A DNA stretch of 63,192 nt, filler included, from Hausera hauseri (taxonomy: Eukaryota): assembly GCA_046269625.1 (NCBI GenBank). It is 10 parts of 10 records of this genome, joined end to end, with 100 filler letters (N's around TTAATTAATTAA, not from the genome) between each part and the next. Parts side by side here need not be neighbours in the genome. Positions count along the whole stretch, not along the records: positions 41,627 to 49,244 come from JBJURY010004458.1; 9 more parts are not named here. The stretch is one strand, 5' to 3'. Shown in pieces: positions 7,236 through 53,710 of the stretch; position 1 is the stretch's first letter; every line of letters starts with the position of its first letter. The notes beneath the pieces were generated by a model that made no database searches, had not been told where the DNA came from, and was given only the letters and a program-made list of their open reading frames with translations. A program made the translations under genes and the position numbers.

Positions 7236-7456
7236 TAATTTTACGATTGGAGAATTTAATGCAATTGGAGAATTTAAATTTGACAGTTTTTCTCGATTCT
7301 CTTTTTTTGATACATTTCATTTGTTTCAATATATATTAGCTGTTATATGTATGAATGCGTTGTAACTGGTTAAGTTGTTATGAATTTATTATAGATTATT
7401 GAAAAGAATTTTTGAAATATTAAACAAGTATTCAGTAGTTATTTTCTTTCTATTCA

Positions 7457-28100: not shown

Positions 28101-31100
28101 AGTGTTAGTATATCGATTCTCTACCGTCCCGACCTCAACCTCACTTGATGATTGTAAGAGAGTTATCCATAAAAGATTTATTATAAAAGTTTGCATAACA
28201 ATTATCTTCTTCACTCATTAAATTGTTCAATCTTCATTAATTCGGCTTGGGAGAGACTTGTTNNNNNNNNNNNNNNNNNNNNNNNNNNNNNNNNNNNNNN
28301 NNNNNNTTAATTAATTAANNNNNNNNNNNNNNNNNNNNNNNNNNNNNNNNNNNNNNNNNNNNCGAGTTACAATTCAGATAGGAATCAAGGTAGCTACCTA
28401 TCAACTAATAAATATACGGATAATGGAAGTAATAATAACAGATATGACGGAGATAATAAACAAATATCACAGAGTAAAAATAAGAATGTAAACAGATCAA
28501 AATCACCTGTGAATAAAGATGATTGACAAAGGATTGGCCGAAATGGGAATTTAATTTGTTTTACGTGTGGAAAAGAGGGACATAGCGCCAGGTCATGCCC
28601 AAATTCTAGAAGTCACATTTACTCAACCGAACAAAACAAGTATGATTAGAAATAACTTAGAAGCCATCTATGGTAAACGAGGTGATTAAGCATGATCATC
28701 GAAATGCAAGACCTGTGTAGGCCTGTAAGATACTTAGTTTAAACTACTAATCCTCAAGTCATAAAAGCTAGGGAAGAGTATGAAGAGAAACTACGGCTAA
28801 TGGAAGTCTGTCATGGGTTGAGAGAACCAGAAACTGAAAAGAATGGGCACTGGAGCAAAATAATACTAATATAGCGCGTAAAAGTCTATTCCCCAAGGGA
28901 TAGTCCAGTCAGAGAAACCAACAACATCTGAGAATGTAGATTTAGACGCAGAATCCGAAAAGTACCACCCAGATGAAAAAACAGATGAAATCGAAAGTGA
29001 ATTTATGGGACTATTAGTTCTCAAAATAACAAAAAATAAAGGTAGAAGCCCATCGCCTAAGAGAAAATCCAAGACTCGCTCAAGATTTCCAATAAAAAGG
29101 ACGCAGAAGAAAGAGGAGACTCCTATACCGTTATCCTAGGAGACGACTCACCTTTAGATACGCCATAAAGGACTTTAGAAACGTTGGAAACACCGGATAT
29201 AATAAACATTAATGACGAAATTAATGAAATTTGTCCGCTTCCAGCTAGTGAGGATGAAACGAAAGTTAGTAATGATTTCGACGCGAGAAAATGGAAGGTT
29301 CGATGTTCATGGAAGAACGCCGACGAACTAAAGAGAATAAGAATTATATGTCACGACCCAGAGATACTTCGACACAATTTAGAAAGACTTAAACAGATCA
29401 GTAAACAAACAGACATATCTGGTAAGGAACAACAATTTGCGGAGAAATTATACAAGAGCTTAAAATTATGGAGCGAAGGGAAGCTCGATGAAGCAATTGA
29501 CATAAGACAATCGGAAGAAATACCACGAAATACGTTAATAAAATGGAACCACGAATTAGAGTCGTGGATTAAAAGTGGAGTAGAATTTTCGGAAGGATGG
29601 AGTAATGACGAAGATAATATTAGCGTAAAAGTAGCTGAAGCGCAAACAATGCTATCTAGCTTAGAAGCTAATCCTAAGTTGAAGCGAACAGCCCGTAACT
29701 TAGAACGTAAGATGGACGAAATACGTTATATAATAAATCACCTTAGAGAAAAATCGGTTAGCAATCGAAGTCATATCGATTTAGAAATATTGGGTATAGA
29801 ACTGACAGACATTTCTCCCTTAATGGAGATGATAAAAAATTCCTTTGTCAAAAACAGTCGATGTGCGGACTTAGAGAGCCGCATCGAAATGGAGAATGAA
29901 AAAAGATTACAGATCAATACTTTAAGAAACCGAATTATGTTCCCAAGCCATGGGGAAACTTAATACGTAATAAAAGCTTGTATTGTAAAGACGAGTTTAG
30001 TTATGCCGGTCGAATTATGAACTTTCTAAGAGGGCCGGACGATGAATTAAAAGATGCACATAATATGTTAGATAAGGCTATAATGGCAGAACCAGTAATC
30101 GCAAACCAATTGTCGGAATGGTCCGAATTAGTAAACCGACTAAGAAAGTTAGTAGAAGACCGAAAAAAAGAATTTCCACAAAGCGAACCAACGGTAAAGA
30201 AGCAGCTAGAAGAAAGTGCACATGATCTAGGCACAATGCGACTGGAAATAGACATCTGTACCCAATTCGAAACATTAAGACGGTTAAAATTTATGAGAAG
30301 AGAACAAGAAACGTCGATATTGAAGGAGATCTATAAATTGATCGAAGAAACGAACTTCACGGAAAAACGGAACATGATTTACGATGTAACTTCAAAGTTG
30401 AAGGTTGCTGGACTCGAAGGAATCCAATACTTAACGGAAAACCAATCGACAAGATCTCTGCCCAAGGCATTAAAATCTTAGACATCTGTCCTGGACATCG
30501 AGATACGTTAACAGATGAAATAAAATTCTTGCATAGACCACAAGAATGGATGACCGGATCAGATCAGAATTTTCATACCAAGTTGACAAAAATAAGAGAT
30601 GACTCACATTTTAGCTTTTACAAACAAAAGTTCGCAAAGAAATTGTTGGATGCAATGGACCCCGACTCAAAAACTATAAATGAGATGTACGAATGGCGGA
30701 GATTAGTGACGAAAGAATGAGGCAATTAATGCCAAGATACAGAAAGTAGAAGAAACTTGCATTAAAACAAAACAAAGAGCAACAAGGTTGGATGAACTAA
30801 GGAACGAATTTGAAGTTTATCGGAACATATATCCTTTTACTGAGTCAGAGATAAAAAATAAACGAGAATTTGTACAAAGATGGCAAAGAGATGTGATTAT
30901 CGAACTAACTGATTACCATCAAAAGGGATTCATCGATTCTAATGAATTAAGCGAATTACTAAAAAGATTCAATACGCTTGCGGGAACGGAATAGGTTTCC
31001 GAACCACACAAATAAAAGAGATACAACCGAGATTGAAAGAAATTCGAGAAAATGTGCAAAAAACGAACACAGCTCTTGTAAACTATGGACTTCCAGATAT

Positions 31101-31408
31101 CAAGAATGAACCAGGATGGGATGCCTATTTAGAAGAAATAGCGGCTGAAAATCCGGTCACTTCGGTACATCTCGATGAAATACAAACGTATCCGCAGAAT
31201 AGGAAATTCAATGTAGAAATGCTCTTAGATTCAGCGTTAACTGAAAAAGATTTAATGGAATCAATTAATGTGAATATGACCGAAAATAAACTCAGGCAAC
31301 TTATTCCGATCTTAACTAAATTATCTAGCAAGAATACAATTTACAACATTGCCAAAACTTTTGATAAAGAAGTACGAAATTATTTTAAGAACTAAACCTG
31401 AGGTAGTG

Positions 31409-31630
31409 ATGAGAGTAGTGATATCATGCGACTGGATGGAAGAAAAAGAATTTGAGATAACTACTTATTCCTACGTAAAGGACGTAAGAGAATGGTTATT
31501 AAATAATAGCGAAACAAATGAGCTAAATTACAGATTTTATTTTAGAGGAAGAATACTTGATGATTTAGAGCAGTTAATAGATGTCGGAATTATTCCCGAC
31601 GAAACAAATCGGATAGTAGTAACAATAGCC
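31409..31630 (+). pseudogene. Ubiquitin-like domain inside the element C polyprotein (no terminal GG)
   Basis: MRVVISCDWMEEKEFEITTYSYVKDVREWLLNNSETNELNYRFYFRGRILDDLEQLIDVGIIPDETNRIVVTI follows the beta-grasp pattern (ubiquitin [21 protein letters not shown]). Confidence 0.75.
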
Positions 31631-32350
31631 AATGAACAGACGAAAGAAGAAGCCACGTGAAAGGCTAAAACGGAACAGTGTGTAGGACAAATCATGGGAG
31701 CGCGAGATGCAGCAATGTATTTCGAATATTTACAGACGGATGAAGACAAAGAACAATATGACAAGAATCTAGTACCTTTGAGCGGGATGCCAACTAATGC
31801 TCCAAGACAAAAACGCCCAGTCGGTAGATCGAGGAAGCCCCGAGAAGAAATCGATTATAACGGAGATCTGATTACAGAGTTAAGACAGATGTCCATTCCT
31901 ACTTTTTGTACAGATAATAAAGAATAAAGCGAGTTAATAAAAAATGTAATACGTATCGTAAATTATTCGAGTTTCAGCGGAGATACATTAGATGACAAAG
32001 AAAAGGCAATATTTAACGCAGCCAGAACAATGAGAAGTTCGAGTTTCAAACTGTCGAAAAGTAGTCTAACCGACGACGCAGTAGTTGAGAAAATTATAGT
32101 GGAGAATACGATAAAAGAGCTAAGAAAAGTATTATTGTATTTGACAATTAAGACAAATCCGAATCAAGAAAATGAACTAAATCGAGCTACGAGTTTGGCT
32201 CGAAAAGCATTTAGGAAACTTCCGTGTGAAGTAAATTGGACAAAATTGTTTGACAAAGAAGAAGACAAGAGGAATAGTAATAATGGACTAGGAGACATCA
32301 TGCGGAACTTGAGGATAACGGATAATAACAACCGAAAGAATGAATCTAAT

Positions 32351-34434
32351 TGGTTAATCAATTTGCTCACCATAATGATGTTGATAAAACAGATGGGCAC
32401 CGTCACCGTTCACGATTGCGATAAATTTAAGCTCGGCCAAAAATACTCATTAATGGATTTAGAAGCGTGCGAAGATGCCAGATCACATGAATTGGAGACT
32501 AAGGAGAAGAACTATTTTCTACACTAACAACAAAAGTTGATATCCTTGGATGGCATGGAATGTATGCTGAGACGATCTCGTAGCATTTTTCATTGTGGGC
32601 TAATGTACGGACACTCCTCAATAATTAAACCAACAACCCCTCCGATCCCAATGAATTTGGAAAGACAACATTGCAAGCAAGCTCGAGAAACCGGAAAACT
32701 GAAATGAGAAAGCCTAGAATTAGAAATGCCGCCCGGAAAAATAATCAGAGCGTATAAGATAGTAGCCGGAAGACTGGATATGCATAACGAGCACTGTAGT
32801 GGAACGGAATACGATACCGGAAAAGGATTGGAAGCAAACGTAATGGTAGTAGATTTTTACGAATCAGAAAAACAAGTCCAAAAAGTAATGTTTCATAGTG
32901 TCACTAAGCTATATACTGAGAATCAAAAATGCCACATGCAAGACGGAACTTGCGCTTTCCGAAGTTTTGACGTCATATGGGAACTGCCCACCGGAAAAGC
33001 TTGCAATTTTATTAAGATCAAAGAACTGAGATTTAATGAAACTACTGGAAAGCGATACGTAGACAAATTCGATATAAGTTCAAGAGCACGTGAAAATGTA
33101 TCAGAGTATCATACATCTACGATATTAATCTCTGATCAACACGGATTGAAATTCATAAAAAAGGAAATGATTTCAAGACGTGAAGTAGTAATGTTCACAA
33201 CTCATTAGGAAGCATTCTTCGTCGCGGAAACGGAGATAAACGCGAAAACATACAACCTGGAAACACAAGACATTCGAATCGAGGATTATCTGAAAAATAA
33301 AGACGATTATTTCTATTATAAAGTACAGGTTGGAATAGCAGAACTATACCATAAAATGATAACGAACGACTACAAATTTGATACGGAAATTATGAGGACA
33401 AAATTAGCTCTTATTTATGCGAACCCGGAATTAGCCTCACCAATTATTCCCATGAGAGAAGGAATTTTTGGTTGAGTTACTGGTGAAGTTCTACTGACAT
33501 ATGAATGCGACAAAAGAGACGTACTAATTAATGTCGAGGAAAAACGATGCATACAAAAACTTCCTGTGATCTACCAGAATACTCCGCGCTTAGCCATGCC
33601 TCTCACTAGAGTATTGCTAGACAACGCAATTCAACCTACCATATTAAAGGATTGCAAAGCAAGTTTGGGTGAATGAATGCTTAGGCGTAGCGAAACGGAT
33701 TGGGTTAGCTTAGCCAATGGAGGTGTCACTATTATTCAAAAAAACTAACTGGAACTAATTTAGCAAAAGGAATGAACGACGACAAGTTTCAGGATACATC
33801 TTAGAAAGGCATACATAGATTTAAAGAAATTGAAGCTTTTCGGCAATTTCTCGCTTTTCCACGACAGCGAACACACGAATTAAATCGGGCCATGGAATCA
33901 GTAGTAGATGATACTCGATACCAAGCGAAATGGGAATCCCTGCTTGGTGAAAACCATTACCAACGGGTAACCACAGAAATACTTTACAAAATATGGGGAA
34001 GATTTTTAATTTTTGGACAAGCGGCATCTGGATTTTTAGCAATCTATTTCATGGTACAACTAGTGAAGGCGGTAATCCAAGCGGTTATAAATGGGTATAA
34101 AATATGCACGCTAACAGGATTTTCTTGCAAGATCTTAATCGCAATTATCACACCGTTTGGCAAAATGCTTAAAGCATACGAAGAAAATCGATGGAAAAAT
34201 GACGTTGAACTCCATGTCGGCTACTATAATTATAAACGTCGAGCAAGACCCATATTTCGATTGAAACACAAGGCTAAGAAACCAATGACACGAACAAATA
34301 ACTCCGGTGATGACGAGCCTAAGGGAGGAGAAGCGATCCTCAGACAAAATAAACACAAAATGTACTCAGTAATTAGTGTACCCTTACCTATCATTCCGCC
34401 AACGGCTACGAGGATTGTGACAAAACATCTATGA
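32351..34434 (+). pseudogene. Chuvirus (Jingchuvirales)-type envelope glycoprotein with an internal signal peptide and C-terminal TM segments
   Basis: Reading through stops: WLINLLTIMML..VHDC..YSLMDLEAC..ECMLRRSRSIFHCG..HS..CKQARETG..AGRL..HCSGTEY..CHMQDGTC..IW..ACNF..GIFG*VTGEVLLTYEC..CIQKLPV..PLTRVL..IWGRFLIFGQAASGFLAIYFMVQLVKAVIQAVINGY. Confidence 0.85.
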
Positions 34435-34834
34435 TGTCATATAGATCGGCATTCTGTCAGAAACCTTTCAGCTATGAAGATCCTTATGAAGGAAGAAAGC
34501 AATATGGAATCTTAAAGAAAATGCAATTCACTAAGCAATGACGAGCGGAAGACGACCACAGGATATTGTACTCACCGAGGATATCTCGGAATATAGAAAC
34601 AAGATCAACAGTCTGGGGAATGTAAGGAGTGAAATCGTTCCAAAATCCAATAGTACAAGAACTATTAATCAGAAATAATGCAAATAACATGGCAGTTAAC
34701 GACTTATACCCCAACAAAGAACTGAAACAGCTGAGTGAAAATATTATTTCATCACCAGAGATAACGATAAACGGACATGAAAATTTTTCGATTAAACGAC
34801 CGAAGGACGTGTCGAGCTGTTATGGGTCAGTTAT

Positions 34835-35145
34835 GGAAGGAAGACCCTTTACAAAAGTTACTATCGAAGATTGGGAAATCTATGCCTTAAAAGACACTGG
34901 ATCGGAGAAATCGTTTATCAAATTAGAATCAATACCACCGACACTCCGAAAACAACTGCAGCTAGAATCATCAGCAGACCCAGGCAGCATAGGAGCCTTC
35001 AGGCAAGAATCCAAACCAAAATTTAAATGGAGTCCTTTAGTCCAGTTAATGGGTCAAATTCTACTACGCGAGTTTGCCATAATGGATCAATTAACCGACG
35101 ATGTAGTGCTAGGTTGCGACATACTGAAACAATTACCCAATATCG
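34835..35145 (+). pseudogene. Retropepsin aspartic protease of element C
   Basis: GRPFTKVTIEDWEIYALKDTGSEKSFI...DDVVLGCDIL. Confidence 0.85.
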
Positions 35146-35245: not shown

Positions 35246-36691
35246 ACTCCTACTAATAATTCCGACCTTCTTCGTCGTTATTTTCTGTCTTCCCTGCCAA
35301 CATCCATTCGAGCTCTACTTACAGTAGTTGATGAGTCTACACCCATTGAAAAACTTGCACTACTAGCGGATAAGAGTTTCGACATTCTTCAATCCAACAG
35401 TTCACAGCCAGTAGCAGCATCGTCCATATCCAAGCCTCCAGAAATACCATCCACCGAGTCACAGGAGCAGACTCCCTCAACCTCGAAAATCCAACAGCAG
35501 TTTTTGAAACCAATGGATGTTCCGTCATATTCTCCAACAGCAAACACGCTCTTGAATGATGTGTCGCCAGCAGTTCCTTATGAACTTTACAAGGACTTTC
35601 TAGACCCAATATCCGAAGCCCTAGACATCATTTACCATTCTATTAATGAAGAACATCTGTCTACTCCCAACAAAACAAGCATCATCGATCAACTAAACTT
35701 TATTCGAAATAAAGTAACAGAAAAAGCGATTCAACACGCAGCATACTTGACCTCATTTAATATTTTGCAGGTCACAATATCGAAGAAACTGGATCATATA
35801 CCATTAACGAAAGAGACAGTATCATCGAGCGCAGTAACAACCGTTCCAGTTCCATCCCCAGTTCCATCTTCACAACCCACCAAGCCGTATGCAGCAATAG
35901 TGAAAGAGTCTGCCTCGGCCCGCCCACCCCAGCAACAGACGTTGATTATAAAATCCACGCTTTCTAAACCTCTAGAAGCGACGAAAAAATGCGTGGAACG
36001 GACTCTTCACAAAGAGCGCTTACTCGTTGAAAGAGTAGATTTCACAAAACAAGGAACAATTCTAGTACACAGCAGTGATCCTGAAATACTAAGACAATTA
36101 GAAACTCATTTAAAATCAGATGTTTCCCAAAAGGATTTACAAATAACACGGAAAGGTCCAGCAACCGGAAAAATTATAGTCTTCAGCGTCCCGAACTATA
36201 CCCCAACGTCTGCCGTCCAAGACGCTATGGTTCACGCGTATCCAGATTACAGCCTGGAAGACGTAAAATTTGTTAAAGCCCCTCCAGGGCGGTTAGATTC
36301 AAAACATGTGGTGCTAGAAGTACCCTTGTCTTTACAACGACTCATCCTCTCAGAGAAAAACCAGGGCCGTCTTCTGGTCGGATTATCCCGTTGCTTAGTG
36401 AAAAGATACCATGTAATTTCACGCTGCTCTCACTGCCAGACAATTGGTCACCCAGCGACTCGTTGTCCCACTCTGGATCAACCCCCAATCTGTGGGAAAT
36501 GCATGTTGACACACTCCACAGACAAATGTGACATTTCCTCAACAAAGTATCAGTGTATTAACTGTACTCTAAGCAACAAAGAATTACAGACAAAATATTC
36601 TGTAAATCATCATACAGGAGACCGCACATGTAGAACATACCAAACAACTTCGAGGGCCTTGCGCCTTTCACTAGAGACAGTAAAAGCTTAA
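35246..36691 (+). CDS. Hybrid ORF1: Gypsy Gag C-terminal capsid segment fused in frame to LINE ORF1 with three zinc knuckles (5' end open at the contig edge)
   Basis: 86 stop-free codons from 35246 (TPTNNSDLLRRYFLSSLPTSIRALLTVVDESTPIEKLALLADKSFDILQSNSSQPVA...) run into ORF 35504..36691, which ends in CSHCQTIGHPATRC, CGKCMLTHSTDKC and CINC..H..C. Confidence 0.85.
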   Translation, partial: TPTNNSDLLRRYFLSSLPTSIRALLTVVDESTPIEKLALLADKSFDILQSNSSQPVAASSISKPPEIPSTESQEQTPSTSKIQQQFLKPMDVPSYSPTANTLLNDVSPAVPYELYKDFLDPISEALDIIYHSINEEHLSTPNKTSIIDQLNFIRNKVTEKAIQHAAYLTSFNILQVTISKKLDHIPLTKETVSSSAVTTVPVPSPVPSSQPTKPYAAIVKESASARPPQQQTLIIKSTLSKPLEATKKCVERTLHKERLLVERVDFTKQGTILVHSSDPEILRQLETHLKSDVSQKDLQITRKGPATGKIIVFSVPNYTPTSAVQDAMVHAYPDYSLEDVKFVKAPPGRLDSKHVVLEVPLSLQRLILSEKNQGRLLVGLSRCLVKRYHVISRCSHCQTIGHPATRCPTLDQPPICGKCMLTHSTDKCDISSTKYQCINCTLSNKELQTKYSVNHHTGDRTCRTYQTTSRALRLSLETVKA

Positions 36692-39600
36692 CATTCTTAT
36701 TAGGACAGTTAAACTTACAAAATAATCGTTCAGCTACATGTGCGGCAATTTCTTATTTTATACGTAAAAATTATTCTTTAGTGCTTCTGCAGGACGTCTA
36801 TCTGTTTCGGGGTCGCCCTTTAAGTTTACCCCTTCATTACCCTATATATTCTTCAACAAACCAAAAAGCCCACATCATAGTTTTAGACCCCAATATAAAG
36901 CATACCATCTCATTAAAAGCAGACAATGTAATTTTCATAAATATAACATTCGACTCAACAATTTGGAGTATTGGAACCCAGTACTCCCCTCCCTCAGGAG
37001 ACCTTTCGGCAGATTTGGCGTCCTGGAGTGGACCTTCTCGTTTAAGCAAGTTTTTGGTTTTTGGTGGTGATTTGAACGCCCATAGTCCCTTGTGGGGCTA
37101 TAATCACGAGGACTCCAGGGGTCGTTCATTGATTCATCATTTTCACAGACAAGGTCTGATCTGTTTGAATGATCCCTCGAGCCCTCCGACGTTCGAATTA
37201 CCCCACATTTTTGGATGGCCTGATGTTACCCTTTGCTCTTTAAATGTGTTTTCCCTCTTCTCTACATGGGAAGTTGATCGGGATCTCAATTTTGCTGATC
37301 ATCGTCTGATAACAGTAACTTTCCAGCAAACAATTACTTTACTTCGAAACGCCGTTTTCGCACAAAAGGAGTACCGTTGACCAAAGTCACAAACGCAATT
37401 CTTTCCGAAATAACCCCTTTACTACCTAAGCTAGCAACTAGCACAACACCTATTGAAGTAGACACTATAATTGAACAATTCGAGGAAAAGATACTTTCCC
37501 AAAGTAAACTTCATTTAAAACAAAAACGACAAAATTATCGTCCACAAGTAAAGTGGTGGTCACCGGCGCTCCGTGCGCAACGAAATAAACTCAGAGCTCT
37601 TTATCGGCGGACTAAATTTGACTCATCTTTAGAAATTCAAACACAATACAGACGTTTCAAAGCGGTCTACAAAAGATCGATACTTGAAGCAAAACGGAGA
37701 TCCTGGCAACAATTTTGTGAAGGAACGACCTCAGCTTTTGGTACGACGCAAAAGTTAGCTTTTGGCAAAAACTTGTCCTCCACAGAACTCCTAGCTCTCG
37801 ATAACTTGCCCCCAACAGAAGTCGTCTCTCGCCCCTTAACTCTAAAGTTTATCATCAACTCAATCTTTGGCACTGAAGGAATTCGTCCTTCTTCACTTCC
37901 CTCTTCTCTACCCTCAGTAGCTCCAACTCATCCACTTACGCATAATGAACTAAAAACTGCTATATTTTCTTTTAAAAAAACAAAAGCCCCAGGTCCAGAT
38001 CAGCTAGATCATATTTTATTACGATCCCTCTATTCCAAAAACCCAGATCTCTTCCATAATCTTTTCTCAAATCTATTCAATTTTAATTACTTTCCAACTT
38101 CCTGGAAAAAAGGGGAGGTCGTTCTTTTTCCTAAAAGGGGAAAGAGTCCAGCATTGGAGAGCTCTTATCGTCCAATAACACTTCTTCCAATTTTAGGCAA
38201 AATTTTAGAAAAAATAATACTAAATCGTATAGAATTTCACATTTTCCAAAACAATTCCTTTCATCAGAACCAATTTGGCTATAGCGATAGGAAGTCTACA
38301 GAATCAGCAATTATCACAGTAATAGACCTAATTCAAAAAGCCCGTGATTCGGCCAATTTTTCTTTAATCGTCTCAATAGACTTCAAAAATGCTTTTGATT
38401 CCCTTCCTTGGCCCCAGACTTTAAAGCTCCTCACTTCTTTAAATCTCCCTCAAGAGCTCTTTAATCTGGTTTCTTCTTTCTTGAAAAATCGTTCAGCGAT
38501 AGTGGATTGGACATCCCCCAAAAATTTAATTTATTTTACAAAAGGTTGTCCCCAAGGTTCTTGTCTGGGACCCTTCCTCTGGAAGCTTCTTTTAAATTCC
38601 TTACTTTCGACATTCACCCTAGTAAATTCAGAATTGATAGCATATGCAGACGACCTGCTTCTGGTGGCGTGGGGATCCACTCAGATCTCTCTGGAGACAA
38701 CAGCTACGAAAGCTCTCCAATTTATCGAAAACTGGGCAATAAATAATAACATCAAAATTTCTACAGAAAAGTGCCAAGCTGTAGTTTTTCCAAGGCACGG
38801 CCCAAGACCTCGAAACCAACCGAAGAAACATGCCTTTCACTGCAATAACATCCACATGAAAAGAAATCCCACATTAACAATCAACAATCAACGCATCCCA
38901 ATTAATCTGGAACTCTTATATCTTGGTGTAACCATTGACAAAAATCTTTCTTGGATACCACATTTACGGCAGAAAAAATCTCAAATTCAATTAATAATCC
39001 AAAACTTATTTAAATTCGCGGCAGTGAACGGTGGTGTTTCCACCACGATACTAAAGATCTGGTACAAAGCCATTCTTGAAAGAGTGGCTCTGTACGCCGC
39101 TGTTAGCTGGTCGTCTTCCCTCTCAAAAAAAGGTTTCGAGCTACTACAATCAATCCAACGGATGTGTCTCATTTTAATATCCAAAGCTTACAGGAAGACT
39201 TCCACTGCCGCGCTGCAAACCCTAACAGGAACTTTGCCAATCGATTTACAACTGAAAAAAGAATCTCTTTTGGCCACAGCGTATCGGTTTCGCAGAGACT
39301 GTCAGCTGGAGGACTTGCGGATTCGAGCTTCTTCTCTCGCAGAGAAACCATCAAAATGGACATTACCCCCTTATTCAAAATTACCTCTTTTGGATCCTTT
39401 ATCCCACCAAGAAAAACATTCCTCCTTAGAAATTTACACAGATGGCTCGAAGCTCCATTTAGGAACGGGAGCGGCCTTTTGTGTCTTCCAAAATAATGAA
39501 TTAATCCATTCAGAGAGTTCAACTCTGGGAGATCGGAATTCGATCTTTCAGGCAGAACTCTTTGCCATTAAACAAGCAACGTCTTGGTTTCACTCTTCTT

Positions 39601-40298
39601 CGTTCGAGTCTGCAACTCTTCTAACGGACAGTCGTTCAAGTTTGGAAATACTGCAAGATATTTACAATAAAAATCCAATAGCCCTAGAAATTTTGCAACT
39701 TATTCAAATTCTTGAGAAACCTCTCCACTTTCGCTGGGTGAAAGCCCATGTAAATGTAAGAGGGAATGAGTTAGCTGACACGCTGGCCAAATCTGCAGCT
39801 TCATCGACGACTCAGAACCGTCAGTGTCTTCCAGTTCCTCCTTCATTTATTAAAAAACTACTAAAAGAAAAAATCGAGCAGATCTGGCAGACCCGATGGT
39901 CCAACCCACAAACAAAGGGACGCTACACCTTCCAGTTCTTCCCTAAAGTCTCAACTGCCCTCACTCTCATACACCGAAATTTGTTTCTATTTTTTACCAA
40001 TCACGGTCCATTTAACGAATACTTATCAAAATTTAATAAAGCACCAAACACATATTGCATTTGTGGAGGAATCTCCAATTCTCAACACTACATCTTTGAT
40101 TGTCCCTTAACTTCACAATACCATATTCGCAAATCCTCTACCATTCCCCTCCCGAATTGGACTTCTCTCTTACTCACTCGACAAGACTTACAATATAAAA
40201 TAATAAATTGCATGAAATACATAGAGGACAATCAGTTAACATTTCAAAGTGTTAATCCTCCTCTTCCCTCTTCTGGCAGAGACTCTGACGGTTTCTGA
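36690..40298 (+). CDS. LINE ORF2 (APE-RT-RNase H-CCHC), R1/LOA-like, with a single frameshift near 37340
   Basis: QLNLQ, GGDLNAHSPLWG, FADHRLI; APGPD, YRPITLL, DFKNAFD, GCPQGSCLGP, YADD; IYTDGSK, QAEL, TDSRS, WVKAH..GNELAD; CICG..H..C. Confidence 0.93.
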
Positions 40299-41526: not shown

Positions 41527-41626
41527 NNNNNNNNNNNNNNNNNNNNNNNNNNNNNNNNNNNNNNNNNNNNTTAATTAATTAANNNNNNNNNNNNNNNNNN
41601 NNNNNNNNNNNNNNNNNNNNNNNNNN

Positions 41627-42156
41627 TCGCGTGAAAGATCATGCTTCATGACTTTATCCAGCAGTTTCTCGATTGCCTTGAAGTAAGCCTCTGGGTCTGC
41701 ACCATTTATTCTGTACCCGGGCGCTTTTTTCAGGTCTTTGCAAAGCGTTGAGGATCGAGCGAAAGCCTTCCCTAGTCGTTTTAGATATGCAGTTATCTTC
41801 GCATCTATTGTCTCGTATCTTTCTGGTGCTTCTTCTTCCAAGACGCATTCAACCATGATTTCCCGTTTTGCCGCCAGGGTATTCATTTATTTAAAAAAAT
41901 TTTCACATCCTTTAATGAATTTCTCCACGTCGTGTCCATTCTTGAATTTGTTGGGCAACAATTGGTTCGCGAAAATGTCCATTGTGGCGTAAGTCGCCAT
42001 GTTGGCCATGGACTTATCTACGCCGTCCACATCGTTGTCCCGCTTAGGCATGGTTGGAAAATCTCCGCCCCCTGATATGTCCGCTAAAGTAAAATTTGAT
42101 TGTTTGTAGATATTCATTGCAAAGTTAACACCAGTTTTAGAAAATTTTATTGTCAC
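41627..42156 (-). pseudogene. N-terminal Gag-like fragment of another LTR element
   Basis: LLPNKFKNGHDVEKFIKGCENFF*..VLEEEAPERY..YLKRLGKAF has a retrotransposon capsid-NTD-like pattern. Confidence 0.5.
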
Positions 42157-42329
42157 TCAAAATACTTATTTGGAAACAAATTTTCCAAAATTCCAAATTT
42201 AAATCATACTTTATTGTAGCACATTTAAATTAAATTTTTAAAATTTAAAAATGTTTCTAATTTAAATCTAGAATTTTGGTTCTCGATTATATTCTCACTT
42301 AAATTACTCACGACACGCATGCATCAAAC

Positions 42330-42539
42330 AATTACGAATCTTCCTGGGTATATGTAATTGCTAAAGAAATATTATCAAAAAATGTGCGGTATACCCGGAA
42401 TAGTCGAATCACTATGCGGAAAAAGTAAAGAAAAACTCGTTTGGTCGGATAACCACGAAAAATCATTTGAAGAGTTGAAACAAGCATTAACCGACACATC
42501 GGTATTGGCATATCCAAACTCTAACAAAGAATTTATACT
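42330..42539 (+). pseudogene. Gypsy RT thumb/RNase H junction fragment, interrupted by the LTR of element D
   Basis: FLGICN..KLVWSDNHEKSFEELKQALTDTSVLAYPNSNKEFIL ends just before the expected TDAS. Confidence 0.8.
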
Positions 42540-43261
42540 TGTTAGTAGTTGAAGGTGGGCCTTGTCCAACACCCAACTATAACAATTCGTGAATTCAAAT
42601 TTAAGATAGTTTTAATTAAGCAGATAAGTTCTAACGTTCTCGTTAGAATGTTTGCACTATTTTAACTTGCAGGTACTGCGTGCGGTGAATGCGTAAATTA
42701 CAAAACTCTAGTCTTAACTATAGATTTTAGACAAAAGATTTTATACCCTAGTGTCGTGCTAGTCCCTCTTAAAGAGCGACGGAAAACTATAGCAATTTTA
42801 AAATACAATATATATTTGAAAACACAATAAAAATACCACACCGATTGAATACAGTTTCAAATTAAATCGTCAACAAGAGTAATACGTCTTCGAATTAACT
42901 GAATACTCTGAAATCGCTTTGCTAATCGTTCACTGAATTTTTCGCCTTTCTACTTGTTCGATCTAATGATCTAAGCACTGCTTTATATACTAGCGGATTT
43001 TCTATTTACAATTTGATAATTCGTTTTCTCGAATTTCCGATAACTTTTACAAATAAACATTCAATTTATTTCATTATACCAATGATATAATCAACTATAT
43101 TCTGTACATAAACTAATTAATTCAAGCTTTATACTTGTAAACATCCACATAAATTAATTCATTTAAGCCTCGATTATTTACATAACAATTAATCATTGTA
43201 CATCCGTTATAATTTCGATTATGTACATACTCACGTCTGGTAGTAGTTGTACTTTACGACA
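42540..43261 (-). repeat. 3' LTR of element D (about 720 bp, TG...CA)
   Basis: Minus strand starts TGTCGTAAAG right after the PPT GGGAGGAGAAA (43262-43272) and ends ...ACTAACA at the break in the host RT. TATA-like GTATATAAAG at about 42981-42990. Confidence 0.75.
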
Positions 43262-43271
43262 TTTCTCCTCC

Positions 43272-44225
43272 CTAAACGGCACTCTCAAATGTGCCCATTG
43301 CGTCAGTTGAGGTGCCGGGAATTTGTTGTAATCGTTCCATTCGTCCGCGTAAGTCCGCTTCCGAATCTATTTCGTTTGATGGGGATCGCGAGTCAATATG
43401 ATAGGATGTATTGGCCTGTTCGGGGACTATCTCTATTATTTTCTTATTTTCTCCGTTCGAATAATATCTCAGCCTTGTAGCCTCGGCTCTGCATACCGGG
43501 CAGGTCGTCTTCCCATTTTTCAGGGTCCACGTTTCTAAGCAGTATCGGCAGTACTTGTGACTGCAATCTTTATTATCTAGGACTACGAATCCTTGGTATA
43601 GGTCCGCATCGCAAACGGGACATTCTTCTTTTTCAGCAGCATCAATGTCCACAAGATTCTCGTCCACTTCTATTCTTTCAAACACGAGTCCTTTTCTGTC
43701 TTGGTACAAATATCCGTACAATCTCTTTTGATTGGGGTCTATTGAACTTTTTCTTGGATCGTCAGATACTGCTACTAGGGTCCATTCTACTATTTCTTGT
43801 TTGTCCAGATCGGGTATTCCAGTTTTCTTATATTGTCTTTTTAACTGAATTCTGACTTGGGTGTCCACGGGAATTGTTAACCTGTTAGTGCCACTTTTTG
43901 ATTGAAATATTGGGGCTAGGTATCTGCCTATGGTGTGATCTTCTCTGGCATATCCGTTTCCACTCACTATTCTTCTTGGAACGGTGGACACGTAAAATAC
44001 AGCCTCTTTGATTTTTCCTCTGCTGTAATATTCGGCCATAACGAGGATTTTCTTGTACTCTTTCACTTCGCCGAATTCTGTAACTATGATCGGGGTATCT
44101 TCCTCCCAGTTCTTCCTGAGAACGTTAACTTCTGACTTAAGAGATTTGGATTTCGTAATTTCCAACGGTTTTCCACTGTCCTCTTTCCTTTTCTCTCGAC
44201 TTAATATTCCTTTCTGATTATTCAT
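43272..44225 (-). CDS. C3HC4 RING-finger protein, C-terminal part of element D ORF3
   Basis: CPVC-x14-CSHKYCRYC-x12-CPVCR. The stop codon overlaps the PPT. Confidence 0.85.
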   Translation of the reverse strand: MNNQKGILSREKRKEDSGKPLEITKSKSLKSEVNVLRKNWEEDTPIIVTEFGEVKEYKKILVMAEYYSRGKIKEAVFYVSTVPRRIVSGNGYAREDHTIGRYLAPIFQSKSGTNRLTIPVDTQVRIQLKRQYKKTGIPDLDKQEIVEWTLVAVSDDPRKSSIDPNQKRLYGYLYQDRKGLVFERIEVDENLVDIDAAEKEECPVCDADLYQGFVVLDNKDCSHKYCRYCLETWTLKNGKTTCPVCRAEATRLRYYSNGENKKIIEIVPEQANTSYHIDSRSPSNEIDSEADLRGRMERLQQIPGTSTDAMGTFESAV

Positions 44226-45779
44226 GGGTTCCTCCGGAATTGGGTTATCTATTGTTGATCCTTTTTCGTCAATTTACCCTTACTGGTCTTGCTTCTCTTT
44301 TTATGGATATAATCCAGGAAGGAGATTTTCGTCTTCTGCCCTTTTGGTTTTTCTGACGCATCACATTTTATCATCGGTTCTTCTGAGCCTTACTAGTTGA
44401 TGGCTTCTGTTGGTTGTGGATGGTTATTCGCATTCGGTTCGGTCCTTGGGGTTCGATTTATCGATAACTTGGGTATTCACTAAACCCTTTTCGGAATTTT
44501 TGTATCAGTGGTTTAGGATTATTGTCAGATATCGCATACTGTACAGGCTCTCTAGGTTTCCATTCGTGATCCCATCGTAAATGGTCACAGACATTCTTGA
44601 TACATTTTGTTCGCTGGCTCGCCGTCATTAATTTCGGGAAATAAATCCTTCGCCATTCATGGCTTCAAGCATCATCTTGAACTGCGATTCGGGCGACGCT
44701 GAGGCAAGAAGTAGACATCCTCTTTTCCGCATTAAGGTGTTTTCCACTTGACTCACGACAGTGGGGTTTCGGCTTATTTCTCGGATGCCGGCTAGATATT
44801 CCTGTCTGATTCGTAATCTTTCTAGTGCTTCGTGGACTCGGAATTCAGTAACAACGTATCCATATAAACAGTGGCTGATGTCTTCTTGGATTTCCAAAAA
44901 ATCTTTACCTTTTTCCAGTTGAGGTTTGGTAATTCCAGTAACATCGGGGAAAGTATCTTTGATTCTAACCCGAGGTGCAATTATCTTGTTCACGACTCCT
45001 TCTTCGTTTGTATTCCTAATGGAGATTTCGATCGGAAAGTACCACCCTTCATCCTTTTCTCCATAATTCACTGCTAATATCCGGGTATTTCAGCCATCTG
45101 AGACTAATCTATACGATTCCCCGTTTTGTTCAATCTCATCTTCTGAAGGTTTCTGAATGTATACTAGCGGGGGTAACGGCTTCATTATCTCGGTTCTCCA
45201 TGTCATTTCGATCATAATTTTGGTTGGAATGTCCGCGATTCTAAACTACAGTGCATAATCAATGAGGCTAAAACAGCATAGCTTATAAGTGATAAATTTC
45301 CATTGTTGCCCTTTTTGCATACTCCAGGATTGTCCTACGATCCTGTACTGAATTTCTTCATGAGCGACATGTATGTACAATTGCTGGTGTGTTGGTTCAT
45401 AATGAATTAGGTCCCTCAAGTGATACACTCGTACATCCTTGGGATTTCTCATGGCGTATAATCGGACCAGTCTGTTTTCTTCTAGACCCCATTTTAACCC
45501 GTTTGGTATTTCGCTCTCTTTGGTGAATTCTCGGTAATTAGTATTTTTCAAGTTTTCCCCGATTTGTCAGTATAAGCTTTTGGATAAGAGTTTTAGGACC
45601 GTAACATGCTGTTGCAAGAAACTATCAATGTCGAAACTGGAACTGTTTGAGGAATTCTTCACCTTCTCGGTCATACTTACTCTGCTGAAATAAAAATAAA
45701 GGTTAAGCCTAAGACAGATCATCGTTTTGAAACAAAACATTTTATCTGTCCGATGATAGGATAACCCGATCTGTAATTG

Positions 45780-47090
45780 TCAGGTTATGCTATCATAAAG
45801 TTCGTCTTGGTTCTCTTTTACCCATTTATCTCCCTTTCGATTTTTACCGCGTTTATTACAATATTTGGAGACTAGAAAAATCATCGCTGTTATTATGACA
45901 AGAACGGAAATTGACACACTAAGTATAGTTATTACTGATAAGCTGTTCGGTTCGGTAGAACTTTGTGCCGTAAACACGTCTAGTGTACTAATATCATGAT
46001 ACGACATTGCTTCAATTTTTACCAAGAGTTCGTACTGTAAACGTTTTAGGGTTCTTACCCTCTGCAGTCATTCTGATTATGTACTCCTGTTGTGATCGTA
46101 ACGTCTTACATGCCGTCCCTAAACTATTCTTTTTCAGGATTACGACTTGGTTAGTATGTAGGGTGCGACACTCAATTTTGACGTCTGTATTTAGTACTTC
46201 TTCAGCGTAGAATAGAATCCTATCGCTCTTCGTTAGGATTTTGACCGGTATACTTCCTAGAATTTCGTTTGTAGTGATAATCGTGATGCTGCGGGCTGTA
46301 CTCGACGTCATGGATGGTTTTCCCGTAGTGGTCAGAAATGGGAGTTCCCATAATCCGTTCTTTGGACGATATCCTCTTAGGAAAACACTCCGTTCACCTG
46401 GATAGGTATCGTACAAATCAAATTGTAGTTGGTACCTTTGTCCTAGTTGTATTACACAGCATACGGTGGGGCGTCGCTTTGCCAATGAACAATATGGCGG
46501 TCTAGAAATAGAAGCGTTCAATGGTGTAAGCTGGACAGAAATTTCCTTGTCTTCAGGTCCTCCGAATTTGGTTCTGATTTGAATGCATTGGTTCTTAAAA
46601 TCCTTGTGAATTTAGACAATGTTGTCATCTAAGAGTCTGTTAATCGGATTGGTGCTTCGAATTATTTCGTCCGTTTTTGCTTGATTTGCATCCTTTTGTT
46701 GCGGCATTCGTATTGTGAGCTCTGAAGCTAAGTCGGCTTGAGCCCCAAATTTATAGGAATAAAATATCTGGAAGCTATATCTATAGACTTTTCCAAAATC
46801 TAAATTACAGCATCTCCTGTAACGTCCGCATGGAAAATCACACACTCTTATATCGTCTCCAGTAGTTACAAATGTTATTTGAAATCCTATGTGGCTCTGA
46901 ATAGGTTCGTCTGTTTCAAACCATGCGCATGGTTTGCTCCAGTCCATATCGCGTATTCTAAGCGTCTGTAAATTTTTGATAACCTTTTGTTTTTCGGTTC
47001 TAGCGCTTGATTTCACCGTAGGTATATATGAAGCGATTAACGATAACGCTAGGACGATTTGTACATAAGATATTGGTCTAGTCACTATTA
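45780..47090 (-). pseudogene. Type I membrane protein (signal peptide, three FN3-like repeats, TM, short tail) fused to the integrase C-terminus
   Basis: ISYVQIVLALSLIASYIPTVKS signal; CCNLDFGKVYRYSF, CCVIQLGQRYQLQF, CKTLRSQQEYIIRM; TM VITILSVSISVLVIITAMIFLV followed by basic residues. One stop (46612) and one frameshift (about 46020). Confidence 0.65.
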
Positions 47091-47099
47091 ACGATGCCT

Positions 47100-49244
47100 T
47101 CTTTTCTTTGTTTGTTTTGCTCGAACGTAGATTGTAACGTTTATCCGGTCTTAATTCAGTTTTGACTACCCTCTGAATTGATGTGACTTCTTCTTTTCCA
47201 TTCTTGTTTATGTAAACTGTAGTCGGCGTAGTTCTTGTAACTTCATAAGGTCCTCTACCTGTCCTGGTAAGCTTAAGAGATGTGCCTTTTTTCGCTACCG
47301 GGTAATGCACATAAACCCAATCTCCTTGTTCCAAATCATGTGGTTTAGCCTTTTTGTCGTATTGTCCTTTAAATTGTTCTTGGTATTCTTTAGATAATTC
47401 TTTGGCTATTTCCCAGCATTTCTGTAATCTCGATTGCAGTACTTCGACGAAATTTTGCTCTAAATCCTCCGTTCGAGTTGTATATGGAATCAGTCTCAGG
47501 TCTGTGGGCAGCACGGCTTCTCTACCATACATCAATAAAAATGGAGTAAATCCTGTTGCCGGATGGGGGGTCATATTAATGGCGAACTGTGTGCCTTATA
47601 AAAATTCATCCCAATCCTTCTGGTCTTTTGTGACTACTGTTGATAAAATCCGTGTAACGGTTGCGTTCATTCGTTCGACCATTCCGTTACATTGGGGGTG
47701 ATAAGCTGTGGTAGTTAATCGTTCAATCTCAAAAATCTTGGAAATTTTCTCGAACAACTCGCTTGTAAAGTTTCTTCCTCTATCTGTCAATATTTGTTCG
47801 GGTGACCCGTATTTGCAGATGATTTTCCGTACTACCGCTTCTGCTAGAGTCTCAGCTTTTTGATCAATTAATGCTATAAGTTCAACGAAATGAGTCAATC
47901 GGTCAACACAAGTCAGAATATATATCTATTATTCTTGTGAGTCGTAGGCAACGGTCCTACAATATCCATAGACATTGCTTGCATTGGCCTATCTGGTACG
48001 TCGATAGGCTTAAGTTCGGCAACGTAATTCTTTACTTTCTTTTGTTTGGTTGCGCATACTTCACAAGCGTTTACCCAATTCTTTACGTCAATGTAGACAC
48101 TCGGCCAGTAGTATTTGTTTAATATTCTTTCCAATGTCTTTTTCCATGACATGTGCCCGGCTAAGTATGAGTCATGTTTAGCCATGAGCACTTCTGCTCT
48201 TAATCCTTTCGGTATGACGACTAGTTTCCGCCCTTTTCGTTCGTAATATAATATATCTTCTTGATTTGAATTTCCAGTGACTCAATATTTGTGACCATAT
48301 CTTCGCAAGTGTTTCCGCAATTGGTGTCCTCTGGGGATTTTGTTATCATTAACAAATTCTACAATCTGTCGTATAACATTGTCTTTTCGCTGTTCAATAG
48401 TAATTTTTAGTGCCTTGTCTAAAGTGAGAGTTCGTTGCCTCTCTACTAAATTTTCAAGGTGTGTCTTCCTCATTACTGTCACTGCGCTAGTTTTGGTTTT
48501 AAGCCTAGATAATGCGTCGGCATCGACATGTTTGCTTCCAGGTTTGTATTGAAATTCGATGTTGTATCGTGAGATCTCTTCGATCCACCTGTTAAGTCTA
48601 CAAGTTGGGTTGTTCGCTCTACCTTTCAGAGTCGTGACTGCTTTATGATCTGTGACGATTATGATCTTTTGTCCGTAGACGTATACATTAAAATGTCGCA
48701 GGGCTTTTTTCACCGCCAATGTTTTTAACTCTGTTACGGAGTAATTCTTCTCTGCTTTCTTCAGTGAGCGTCCTCCATATGCAATTGGGTGTTCCAATTC
48801 CTCGTTCTCTCGTTTTTGAGCTAGCTCATGTCCAATACCTTCTTTGCTGGCATCTGTTTTGATTATGAACCGTAGTTTGAAGTCTGGATATCTTAAAACA
48901 GGTTCACTAGTTAAAATTTTCTTCATCTCATCAAAAGCCTTTTGTTCTACGTCGGTCCATTTCCATTTGATTCCTTTCTTCAACAAGCGATACAGTGGTG
49001 CATTTATTTTTGCGTTTTCCGGTACATAAGTAGCATAATATCCACACAATCCCAACCAATGTCTTAGTTCTTTCTGATTCTTGGGCTCCATACAATCCGA
49101 TATTTTGATCAATAACGATTTATCCGGTTTTGATCCTCCTTCTCCTACTATATGCCCGAGATACGATACAGCATTCTGAGCCCATTTGCACTTCTTGGGA
49201 TTTAACTTCAGTCCAGCCTGCTCTAGCCTCATGAGCGTATCTTC
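47100..49244 (-). pseudogene. Pol of element D (RT end, RNase H, integrase)
   Basis: ORFs 48282..49232, 47913..48191, 47596..47898 and the first half of 46612..47574. Confidence 0.92.
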
Positions 49245-49785
49245 NNNNNNNNNNNNNNNNNNNNNNNNNNNNNNNNNNNNNNNNNNNNTTAATTAATTAA
49301 NNNNNNNNNNNNNNNNNNNNNNNNNNNNNNNNNNNNNNNNNNNNACAAATTTCAGCGAGTAGCGTAAACTCACCACAAAATTATTTCATGAAATTTTTTA
49401 CCAATGAATTAATTTGAAAAGACGTTCAAGATGAACAAAGTAATTGGTATTACAGATTCAGTTTAGTAGAGTTGTCAAGAATTTCAAGTACCCGAAGAGA
49501 TCCAACGAATCAACTTATAGTTTAAATAACAAACTTCGAGTTATACAGTAAAATGGTATTCGTAGTGTTGACTTTTGAGATGCATTTTTGAATATTTGAT
49601 AAAATTAACCTTATATTTCTTAAAATACTTTATTAGTAATTGTTGAAATTACAAGTCAAAATTTGTGATTACTATTCATAATATTATAACATGATATTTA
49701 AATAACTGAACATGGTAAATTTAATCAAATTATTACAACAAATGATATAAGTTCAAAGTATGTATTTGTAAATATGACTAATAAT

Positions 49786-53400: not shown

Positions 53401-53610
53401 TCAATCAAGTGTCTGTAACGTTAGCCATAATAGGCAGTAATGTCCACACAATACGGTCAGTGGATGTTGATAATGAACTCGATTATATTCAACACGGTAC
53501 GATGATTGTCGTTCAATTTGTGAAACTAACGATGACGGATAGTAAAACCCAAGCGGATCGAATACCTTGACGACGGCGGTCGGATGTACGTACACCGCAA
53601 TCCAATGTTC
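53401..53610 (-). CDS. Polinton adenain-type cysteine protease, C-terminal part
   Basis: EHWIAVY..VFDPLG..YN...YQHPLTVLCGHYCL carries the H/D/Q/C catalytic residues. Cut by the contig end. Confidence 0.88.
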   Translation of the reverse strand, partial: EHWIAVYVHPTAVVKVFDPLGFYYPSSLVSQIERQSSYRVEYNRVHYQHPLTVLCGHYCLLWLTLQTLD

Positions 53611-53710
53611 NNNNNNNNNNNNNNNNNNNNNNNNNNNNNNNNNNNNNNNNNNNNTTAATTAATTAANNNNNNNNNNNNNNNNNNNNNNNNNNNNNNNNNN
53701 NNNNNNNNNN

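Follow-up and report, generated by a model that had tools for sequence, protein, structure and literature searches.

The window analysed here, a stretch of 63,192 nucleotides from the Hausera hauseri assembly GCA_046269625.1, holds on its minus strand the 3' portion of a Ty3/gypsy long terminal repeat (LTR) retrotransposon, and between the polymerase gene (pol) of this element and its 3' LTR we found an accessory gene (43272..45674) that is real, element-borne and conserved. Its product is predicted, with good confidence, to consist of a cupin-like domain, a pseudo-nuclease, a linker, a domain of unknown fold and a C-terminal RING finger, in this order, the RING and the exonuclease being assigned by profiles and the cupin by structure prediction. 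We tentatively read this protein as an RNA-binding ubiquitin ligase that may act against host RNA-defence proteins and is probably made from a spliced subgenomic mRNA.

The gene occupies a single minus-strand frame from an ATG at 45674 to a TAG at 43274-43272 (800 codons and the stop, 801 in all), and the remaining two frames over the same interval hold 62 and 38 stops. The window copy carries 11 internal stops, three of them isolated (codons 36, 143 and 195) and eight within codons 349-467. At codon 143 all contig depth reads otherwise in each of the four runs compared, so that this break is private to the window copy; other copies also differ from it by small indels near 44640. The gene has no introns and an A-rich strand composition like that of pol (A 0.35-0.41 vs 0.38). 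Its stop codon shares two bases with the polypurine tract (PPT), and 10 nt separate its end from the LTR. The initial annotation had proposed a gene of about 800 residues within the element, continuing from this ATG with only point stops as far as 44628 and, past a disrupted stretch, reaching a C3HC4 RING whose stop overlaps both PPT and LTR. The length, the single frame, the RING, the three isolated stops and the overlap with the PPT were all borne out; the cluster at codons 349-467 may represent either point stops or short compensating shifts, and the overlap with the LTR does not exist.

The unity of the gene was most clearly seen from an intact homologue. P0003, a stop-free protein of 870 residues, could be aligned by BLASTP over its whole length (334/840 identities, 40%), with the same RING, and gave in tblastn against the window a single match in one frame (45635-43260, 39%). 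Because it aligns end to end, RING included, we regard the frame as one gene, and that this gene lies inside the element is practically certain. The identity to P0003 follows the domains: it falls from 41-56% across the first 340 codons to 20-23% in the linker and rises again to 55% in the domain before the RING and 74% in the RING itself, a pattern expected where selection acts on protein domains. P0005, the third close member, is truncated at 333 residues. Both homologues, known here as proteins, come from contigs (16.2 and 12.4 kb, respectively). P0003 was the sole match in word-indexed protein searches with the gene, and no locus of the gene was detected in viral contigs (three scans) or in metagenome contigs, nor any match among phage records.

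The C3HC4 RING finger (43488..43622, minus strand) is recognised by its ligand spacing and passes the Pfam cut-offs (zf-RING_2, 33.1 bits; zf-C3HC4, 25.4). In the window copy and in P0003 all eight zinc ligands are present, together with the helix Trp and the Arg after the last Cys, residues which in RING fingers serve binding of the ubiquitin-conjugating enzyme (E2).

The N-terminal part, for which the initial annotation had recommended profile analysis and whose anatomy it did not describe, was resolved into two domains. AlphaFold2 was run on P0003 with the family alignment, the model was compared by Foldseek, and a profile of 24 rows (two cluster members included, P0012 excluded) was searched. 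The model is confident at residues ~55-415 and in the RING and has low confidence over the linker and much of the pre-RING domain; a model folded from the single sequence reached a predicted local distance difference test (pLDDT) score of 31. An ISG20/REX4-type DEDDh exonuclease fold (44559..45089, minus strand) is indicated by the family profile (ISG20L2, E 3e-37; ISG20, 6e-25) and by Foldseek, which ranks ISG20 first (template modelling (TM) score 0.81 over the target, root-mean-square deviation 2.6). P0003 alone matches DnaQ (E 8e-4), a PHROG exonuclease subunit (E 1e-4) and an annotated plasmid 3'-5' exonuclease (E 0.06), and in the ESM Atlas the N-terminal half gave leads below 0.9 to RNase_T and to the arenavirus nucleoprotein. 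Weak matches to a Shotoku capsid, CAT and ribosomal S19 were dismissed as chance. The five catalytic positions (D and E of ExoI, D of ExoII, H and D of ExoIII) are occupied by A, N, A, A and V in the window copy and by A, N, M, L and C in P0003, that is, none of the five is retained in either; P0005 has neither of the two that are visible, 11 of the 24 aligned rows have all five, and an alternative register produced no acidic pair. Since none of the five residues is kept in the window copy or P0003, the domain is not an active member of the DEDDh group, and judged by the alignment the nuclease is very probably dead.

Upstream of it lies a predicted double-stranded beta-helix (45201..45635, minus strand, boundaries approximate), modelled in P0003 with pLDDT mostly 80-95 and containing one conserved His in the alignment. 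The Foldseek matches to cupins (E 7e-4 to 3e-3; 6b8w, E 7e-4; 2q30, E 8e-4; TM ~0.6) suggest, with modest scores, a barrel of the cupin superfamily. Between the pseudo-nuclease and the RING are a poorly conserved linker (44055..44558, minus strand), predicted to be disordered (pLDDT <50) and containing most of the stop cluster, and a conserved, beta-rich domain of ~140 residues (43626..44054, minus strand; model pLDDT ~35-70). The latter gave no convincing match in Pfam and none in the ESM Atlas; by eye only, it appears AbrB-like. A viral fold library returned only single-domain matches, to exonuclease, cupin or RING.

Several observations weigh against this anatomy and against the ligase built upon it. 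The cupin matches are modest (E ~1e-3), and no Pfam cupin occurs among the 25 families listed for the 24 rows. The exonuclease-like stretch of the window, taken alone, matches no exonuclease in PDB sequences or Pfam, so that the assignment rests on the homologues, and as the folded alignment held active ISG20-like rows, the model may have been pulled toward an ISG20-like fold. The RING, finally, was found in just two proteins.

The cupin-exonuclease module extends further than the RING. With a profile of two sequences lacking the RING, searched against 1.84 billion representatives, we obtained 22 matches at E up to 0.001; among the 21 besides P0003, seven match Pfam RNase_T at E 0.001 and none carries a RING. 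Taken by itself, the N-terminal domain relates 14 distant proteins to the three close ones (hhalign 96%; E of at least 36 for reversed controls); these 14 have the module without a RING, and half of them (7/14) keep all five catalytic residues. The proteins P0006-P0025 appear as an unnamed family of cupin-like domains with ISG20-type exonucleases and long low-complexity tails; the members looked up belong to clusters of 1-2, and their contigs, where listed, measure 1.6-4 kb. In a tree of 22 exonuclease folds, from which P0012, P0026 and P0027 were omitted, the three close proteins group together with support of 99/98, and the long branches would accommodate differing numbers of catalytic losses. 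Among the same 1.84 billion representatives no cellular protein with the cupin-pseudo-nuclease-RING architecture was found.

The window is made of joined contigs, with N runs and a TTAATTAATTAA spacer at nine places (e.g. 41527-41626 and 49245-49344), and the sequences on either side of these runs are consequently not true neighbours. Positions 41627-49244 have no N gap inside. As the contig stops at 49244 (gap from 49245), the window includes neither the gag nor the 5' LTR nor the splice donor of this element. What is seen is the 3' part of a Ty3/gypsy pol (47150..49244, minus strand, cut by the gap at 49245) with the end of the reverse transcriptase (RT; RVT_1, E 0.004), RNase H (RT_RNaseH_2, 5e-34) and the zinc finger and core of the integrase (Integrase_H2C2, 2e-19; rve, 1e-11), in the order RT, RNase H, integrase; it is degraded by stops and one shift, and a GPY/F-like tail was seen by eye. 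The nearest metagenome integrases are 32-51% identical to that of the element. At the other end, the PPT (43262..43273, minus strand), the first two bases of which are the last two of the stop codon, is followed by a 3' LTR of 722 bp (42540..43261, minus strand), which begins with TGT at 43261, ends with ACA at 42540 and has TATA-like and initiator-like motifs. From the order of pol and the succession of PPT and TG...CA LTR, the element is assigned to the Ty3/gypsy (Metaviridae) LTR retrotransposons.

Contigs fitting the element numbered 24004, 2940, 870 and 673 in the four runs compared, out of seven listed, mostly at 80-95% identity, and covered 30/30, 30/30, 29/30 and 30/30 of its bins; the element belongs to a large, diverged multi-copy family, with contigs under several organism codes. 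Loose contig ends at 42540 (5 and 2 contigs in runs X2 and X4) back the LTR boundary, and one contig of run X1 passes from the end of the gene through the PPT into the LTR (42762-43275) with 2 differences. Both the identity of 42540-43261 as the LTR of this element and the presence of the RING gene in other copies, as supposed in the initial annotation, are supported by these contigs. In each of the four runs, summed contig depth past the integrase gene peaks in the bin 45650-45874, which includes the tail of the membrane-protein gene described below, the hairpins and the acceptor; as such depth cannot rank parts of the element, the peak is no more than a hint of conservation at the DNA level. 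Downstream of the LTR, at 41627-42156 (minus strand), a short gag-like piece of another element was noticed by eye, without a Pfam match.

Between integrase and accessory gene, and in frame with the integrase, hydropathy and reading frames point to a type I membrane protein (45780..47091, minus strand), which the initial annotation does not mention. It is predicted to have a hydrophobic signal-like segment, a Cys-containing ectodomain of ~350 residues, a transmembrane helix near 45950-45860 and a short basic tail. The frame is interrupted at 46614, by a stop that nearly all contig depth lacks in four of four runs, and by a shift near 46018, after which the helix and the tail are read. Neither Pfam nor PDB sequences nor the longer proteins searched yielded a match to this protein, and PHROG gave one weak match (E 0.24); among Pfam, PDB sequences and homologues it matches neither F-type nor gB-type Env. 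Weak matches to two capsid proteins were dismissed as chance. Since this protein follows the integrase, the RING gene is the coding unit after an envelope-like gene.

The accessory gene is probably expressed by splicing at an acceptor at 45686/45683, followed by initiation at the ATG at 45674. The signal (45682..45707, minus strand) consists of a branch-point-like CTTAAC (45707-45702), a T tract and tandem CAG triplets, the AG of the first being at 45686-45685 and the second CAG following directly; these elements and the ATG lie where the initial annotation had placed them. On the minus strand of the element a filter for tract plus branch point is passed by two of 206 YAG sites, this acceptor included, at a rate in base shuffles of 0.056 per 6.7 kb. 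Read in the frame of the gene, the acceptor encodes N-x5-S-R, and N-x5-S-[R/S] recurs upstream in both P0003 and P0005, at a distance of 7 and 15 codons from the first conserved residue, where pyrimidine-rich codons could specify the five residues; the background of this motif is 2 in 10563 positions, and none with the restriction to pyrimidine codons. Past this motif, and still ahead of the first conserved residue, all three close proteins have a Met of their own. It counts against this argument that the motif was relaxed after the homologues had been seen and that it is a likeness of protein, not of DNA. No joint at the acceptor was found among 15 of 80 contig joints listed, the kind of contig being unrecorded and the donor lying outside the window. 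A donor-like GTAAGT hexamer, one of four in the element, is present at 45680. The env genes of errantiviruses are expressed by splicing, and the analogy drawn in the initial annotation reaches as far as splicing: the membrane protein matched no known Env family in Pfam, PDB sequences or homologues.

It is also conceivable, though rather unlikely, that the gene is additionally or mainly read by readthrough of the stop of the membrane gene, yielding a membrane-anchored protein with cytoplasmic cupin, pseudo-nuclease and RING; such a product would ubiquitinate membrane or particle proteins, and its synthesis would be compatible with splicing. The only stop of the membrane gene, the TGA at 45782-45780, stands in the frame of the RING gene and is followed by CAA TTA, a leaky context of the CAR-YYA type (45774..45782, minus strand) that occurs at 15 of the 6718 stop triplets which the window contains and was likewise missing from the initial annotation. 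From this TGA to the ATG 35 codons are open (as in 7% of 20000 shuffles), and P0003 and P0005 are open for at least 40 and at least 44 codons upstream of the acceptor motif. A structured RNA is predicted at 45700..45796 (minus strand; z -3.25, with the lowest z, -4.05, among 110 windows over the element), either as two tandem hairpins or, if the stop is covered, as one long stem-loop that begins 12 nt after the stop, pairs the branch point and refolds at -23.2 kcal/mol. CAR-YYA contexts and 3' stem-loops are known readthrough signals, and SIRE1 is among the elements with frames split by an in-frame stop (in the available parts of PMC2194720 and PMC3159437). However, the combination of in-frame stop, context, open frame and 3' structure was seen in one copy and recognised after the fact, the residues upstream of the motif are unlike among the three proteins, and the homologues are open at the 25-codon distance where the window has a stop. 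Moreover, T-rich, AG-poor intron ends are frequently stop-free, and the bases preceding the stop are CC rather than the favourable AA. Splicing to the acceptor is the route that we prefer.

As a dead RNA-exonuclease fold is joined by a flexible linker to an intact RING, an RNA-guided ligase is the simplest reading of the product. Following the splicing and initiation proposed above, the RING would very likely recruit a host E2, as its intact ligands and surface residues suggest. The dead nuclease might keep its binding of RNA ends and so bring the RING to proteins on element RNA; this is the weakest step, argued by analogy and somewhat doubtful, and the candidate targets of ubiquitination named by the same analogy would be PIWI/Argonaute complexes, decay nucleases and RNA sensors. 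Dead DEDD folds that retain RNA binding are represented by Maelstrom and EXD1 in PIWI-interacting RNA (piRNA) biology (available text of PMC5408684), and the viral protein CrPV-1A causes Ago2 to be degraded by way of a ubiquitin ligase (E3; available text of PMC9746944). We infer from these parallels a possible anti-silencing role. Host-defence proteins are favoured over particle proteins as targets on the grounds of analogy, patchy distribution and fast divergence.

Rather less probable is a role in the cycle of the element itself, in which the ligase would bind element RNA and ubiquitinate Gag or the particle for budding, uncoating or control of copy number. Retrovirus budding can depend on ubiquitin, the neighbouring membrane protein suggests an extracellular or cell-to-cell stage, and RNA binding with a RING fits such a role equally well. 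Against it, the gene does not appear to be a core need: none of 53 distant gypsy-like integrase loci in metagenome contigs (many of them short) matches it, and the 14 distant cupin-exonuclease proteins are without a RING. Repeated catalytic loss and long branches, in addition, fit conflict.

An extended form of that reading, which we consider quite doubtful, would derive two products from one RNA switch: a soluble one by splicing and a membrane-anchored one by readthrough of the envelope-like gene, with the stem-loop hiding either the stop codon or the branch point. The protein would then be an anti-defence ligase made from a disarmed ISG20-like nuclease, and the gene a RING-bearing branch of a wider, undescribed mobile family of cupin-exonucleases.

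Two further explanations are very improbable. The gene could be a host gene or chimeric pseudogene that the element picked up and carries along without use for it; this would accord with the dead window copy and with the capture of extra ORFs (open reading frames) downstream of pol by LTR elements (available text of PMC6431247), but is opposed by the domain-shaped conservation at 40% overall identity, the intact homologue, the lack of introns, the pol-like A-rich composition, the occurrence throughout a multi-copy family in four runs and the lack of such a cellular architecture among the representatives searched. Alternatively, the RING gene and LTR might stem from a second element, inserted into the one bearing pol or wrongly assembled with it. 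This might be argued from the missing 5' LTR, the fragmentary assembly and the lack of a single contig spanning the whole stretch, but the interval is free of N gaps, depth runs without a break between pol and LTR, all four runs cover the junction bin 45650-45874, and the X1 contig joins the end of the gene to the LTR.

Other parts of the window, all on the plus strand unless stated, contain further mobile or composite sequences. At 28363-35145 there is a decayed element in which a Monjiviricetes_fusion match (Pfam E 9e-19, 33805-34434) stands upstream of RVP (E 3e-5, 34626-35144); as the fusion glycoprotein precedes the retroviral protease, env lies before pol, and GAG-ENV-POL and ENV-GAG-POL layouts are mentioned in the available text of PMC13524379. 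An intronless frame of 2477 codons (7439-14872), in which kinase-like, VPS13 middle, FERM/PTB and talin pieces are joined, has the appearance of a host-gene chimera. In a non-LTR element (35246-40298), an open frame of 999 codons with RT and RNase H is accompanied by a gag-like ORF and, judged by eye, an endonuclease-like one. On the minus strand, a fragment at 53401-53658 resembles by eye a cysteine protease of the adenovirus type, such as occurs in Polintons.

The question of how animal retrotransposons withstand piRNA and RNA-decay defences is still open, element-encoded suppressors being best known from plant DNA transposons. The gene described here offers a concrete candidate that lends itself to tests, with its RING intact, its pseudo-nuclease and a homologue that is naturally complete; it also reveals an unannotated cupin-exonuclease family, half of whose members seen here retain the catalytic residues, and a junction at which a splice acceptor and a readthrough signal would overlap. 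Accessory genes of LTR elements are a known class, and the cupin-pseudo-nuclease-RING architecture was not found described in the literature searched; the supplements of PMC13524379 and Repbase entries could hold such elements.

Roquin and MEX3 are cellular RNA-binding RING ligases, and the protein proposed here would resemble them in having an RNA-binding module tied to a RING. With ISG20, ISG20L2, REX4 and SDN1 it shares the predicted fold, and with Maelstrom and EXD1 (available text of PMC5408684) the loss of catalysis and presumed RNA binding, although no homology to Maelstrom or EXD1 was found, no direct comparison having been made; it differs from all of these in being encoded by an element and fused to cupin and RING. 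In the bdelloid rotifer LTR elements Juno and Vesta, ORF3 encodes a DEDDy exonuclease with intact catalytic residues, and ORF3s typically come from spliced messages (same source). The position is similar, an exonuclease gene of the DnaQ superfamily at the ORF3 site of an LTR retrotransposon. Unlike their RNase D-like DEDDy enzymes, ours is a dead ISG20/REX4-like DEDDh fold that is joined to a cupin-like domain and to a RING, and its gene stands after that of a separate membrane protein; the word RING does not occur in the available text on Juno and Vesta. The planarian giant gypsy elements Burro/GYPSM1 likewise carry ubiquitin-related accessory domains (MATH, BIR, SUMO-like and an AIR1 motif described as a RING Zn-finger; available text of PMC6431247). 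There, these domains are within the 4,873-residue polyprotein of ORF1, whereas here a separate 3' gene encodes a canonical C3HC4 RING with a pseudo-nuclease. In a survey of Drosophila virilis a RING domain is mentioned in a figure legend, the element not being identifiable from that passage (PMC12910113).

The layout of gag, pol and an extra gene, with a membrane protein past the integrase, recalls the errantiviruses (PMC13524379), in the available main text of which the words 'RING', 'ubiquitin' and 'exonuclease' have no occurrence. Unlike in errantiviruses, the membrane protein is in frame with pol and, in the searches made, matched no F-type or gB-type Env family, and the candidate for splicing is a soluble protein. 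The in-frame stop, CAR-YYA context and 3' stem-loop resemble those of SIRE1 and of alphavirus and tobamovirus sites (available text of PMC2194720 and PMC3159437), from which the candidate signal differs in following a membrane protein and overlapping a splice acceptor. With CrPV-1A (PMC9746944) and VANC (PMC13547354), as far as the available texts describe them, there is no sequence relation and only the logic is shared, a protein of a parasite set against silencing: CrPV-1A uses a host cullin ligase and VANC comes from plant DNA transposons, whereas in the present case the RING is encoded by the element itself.

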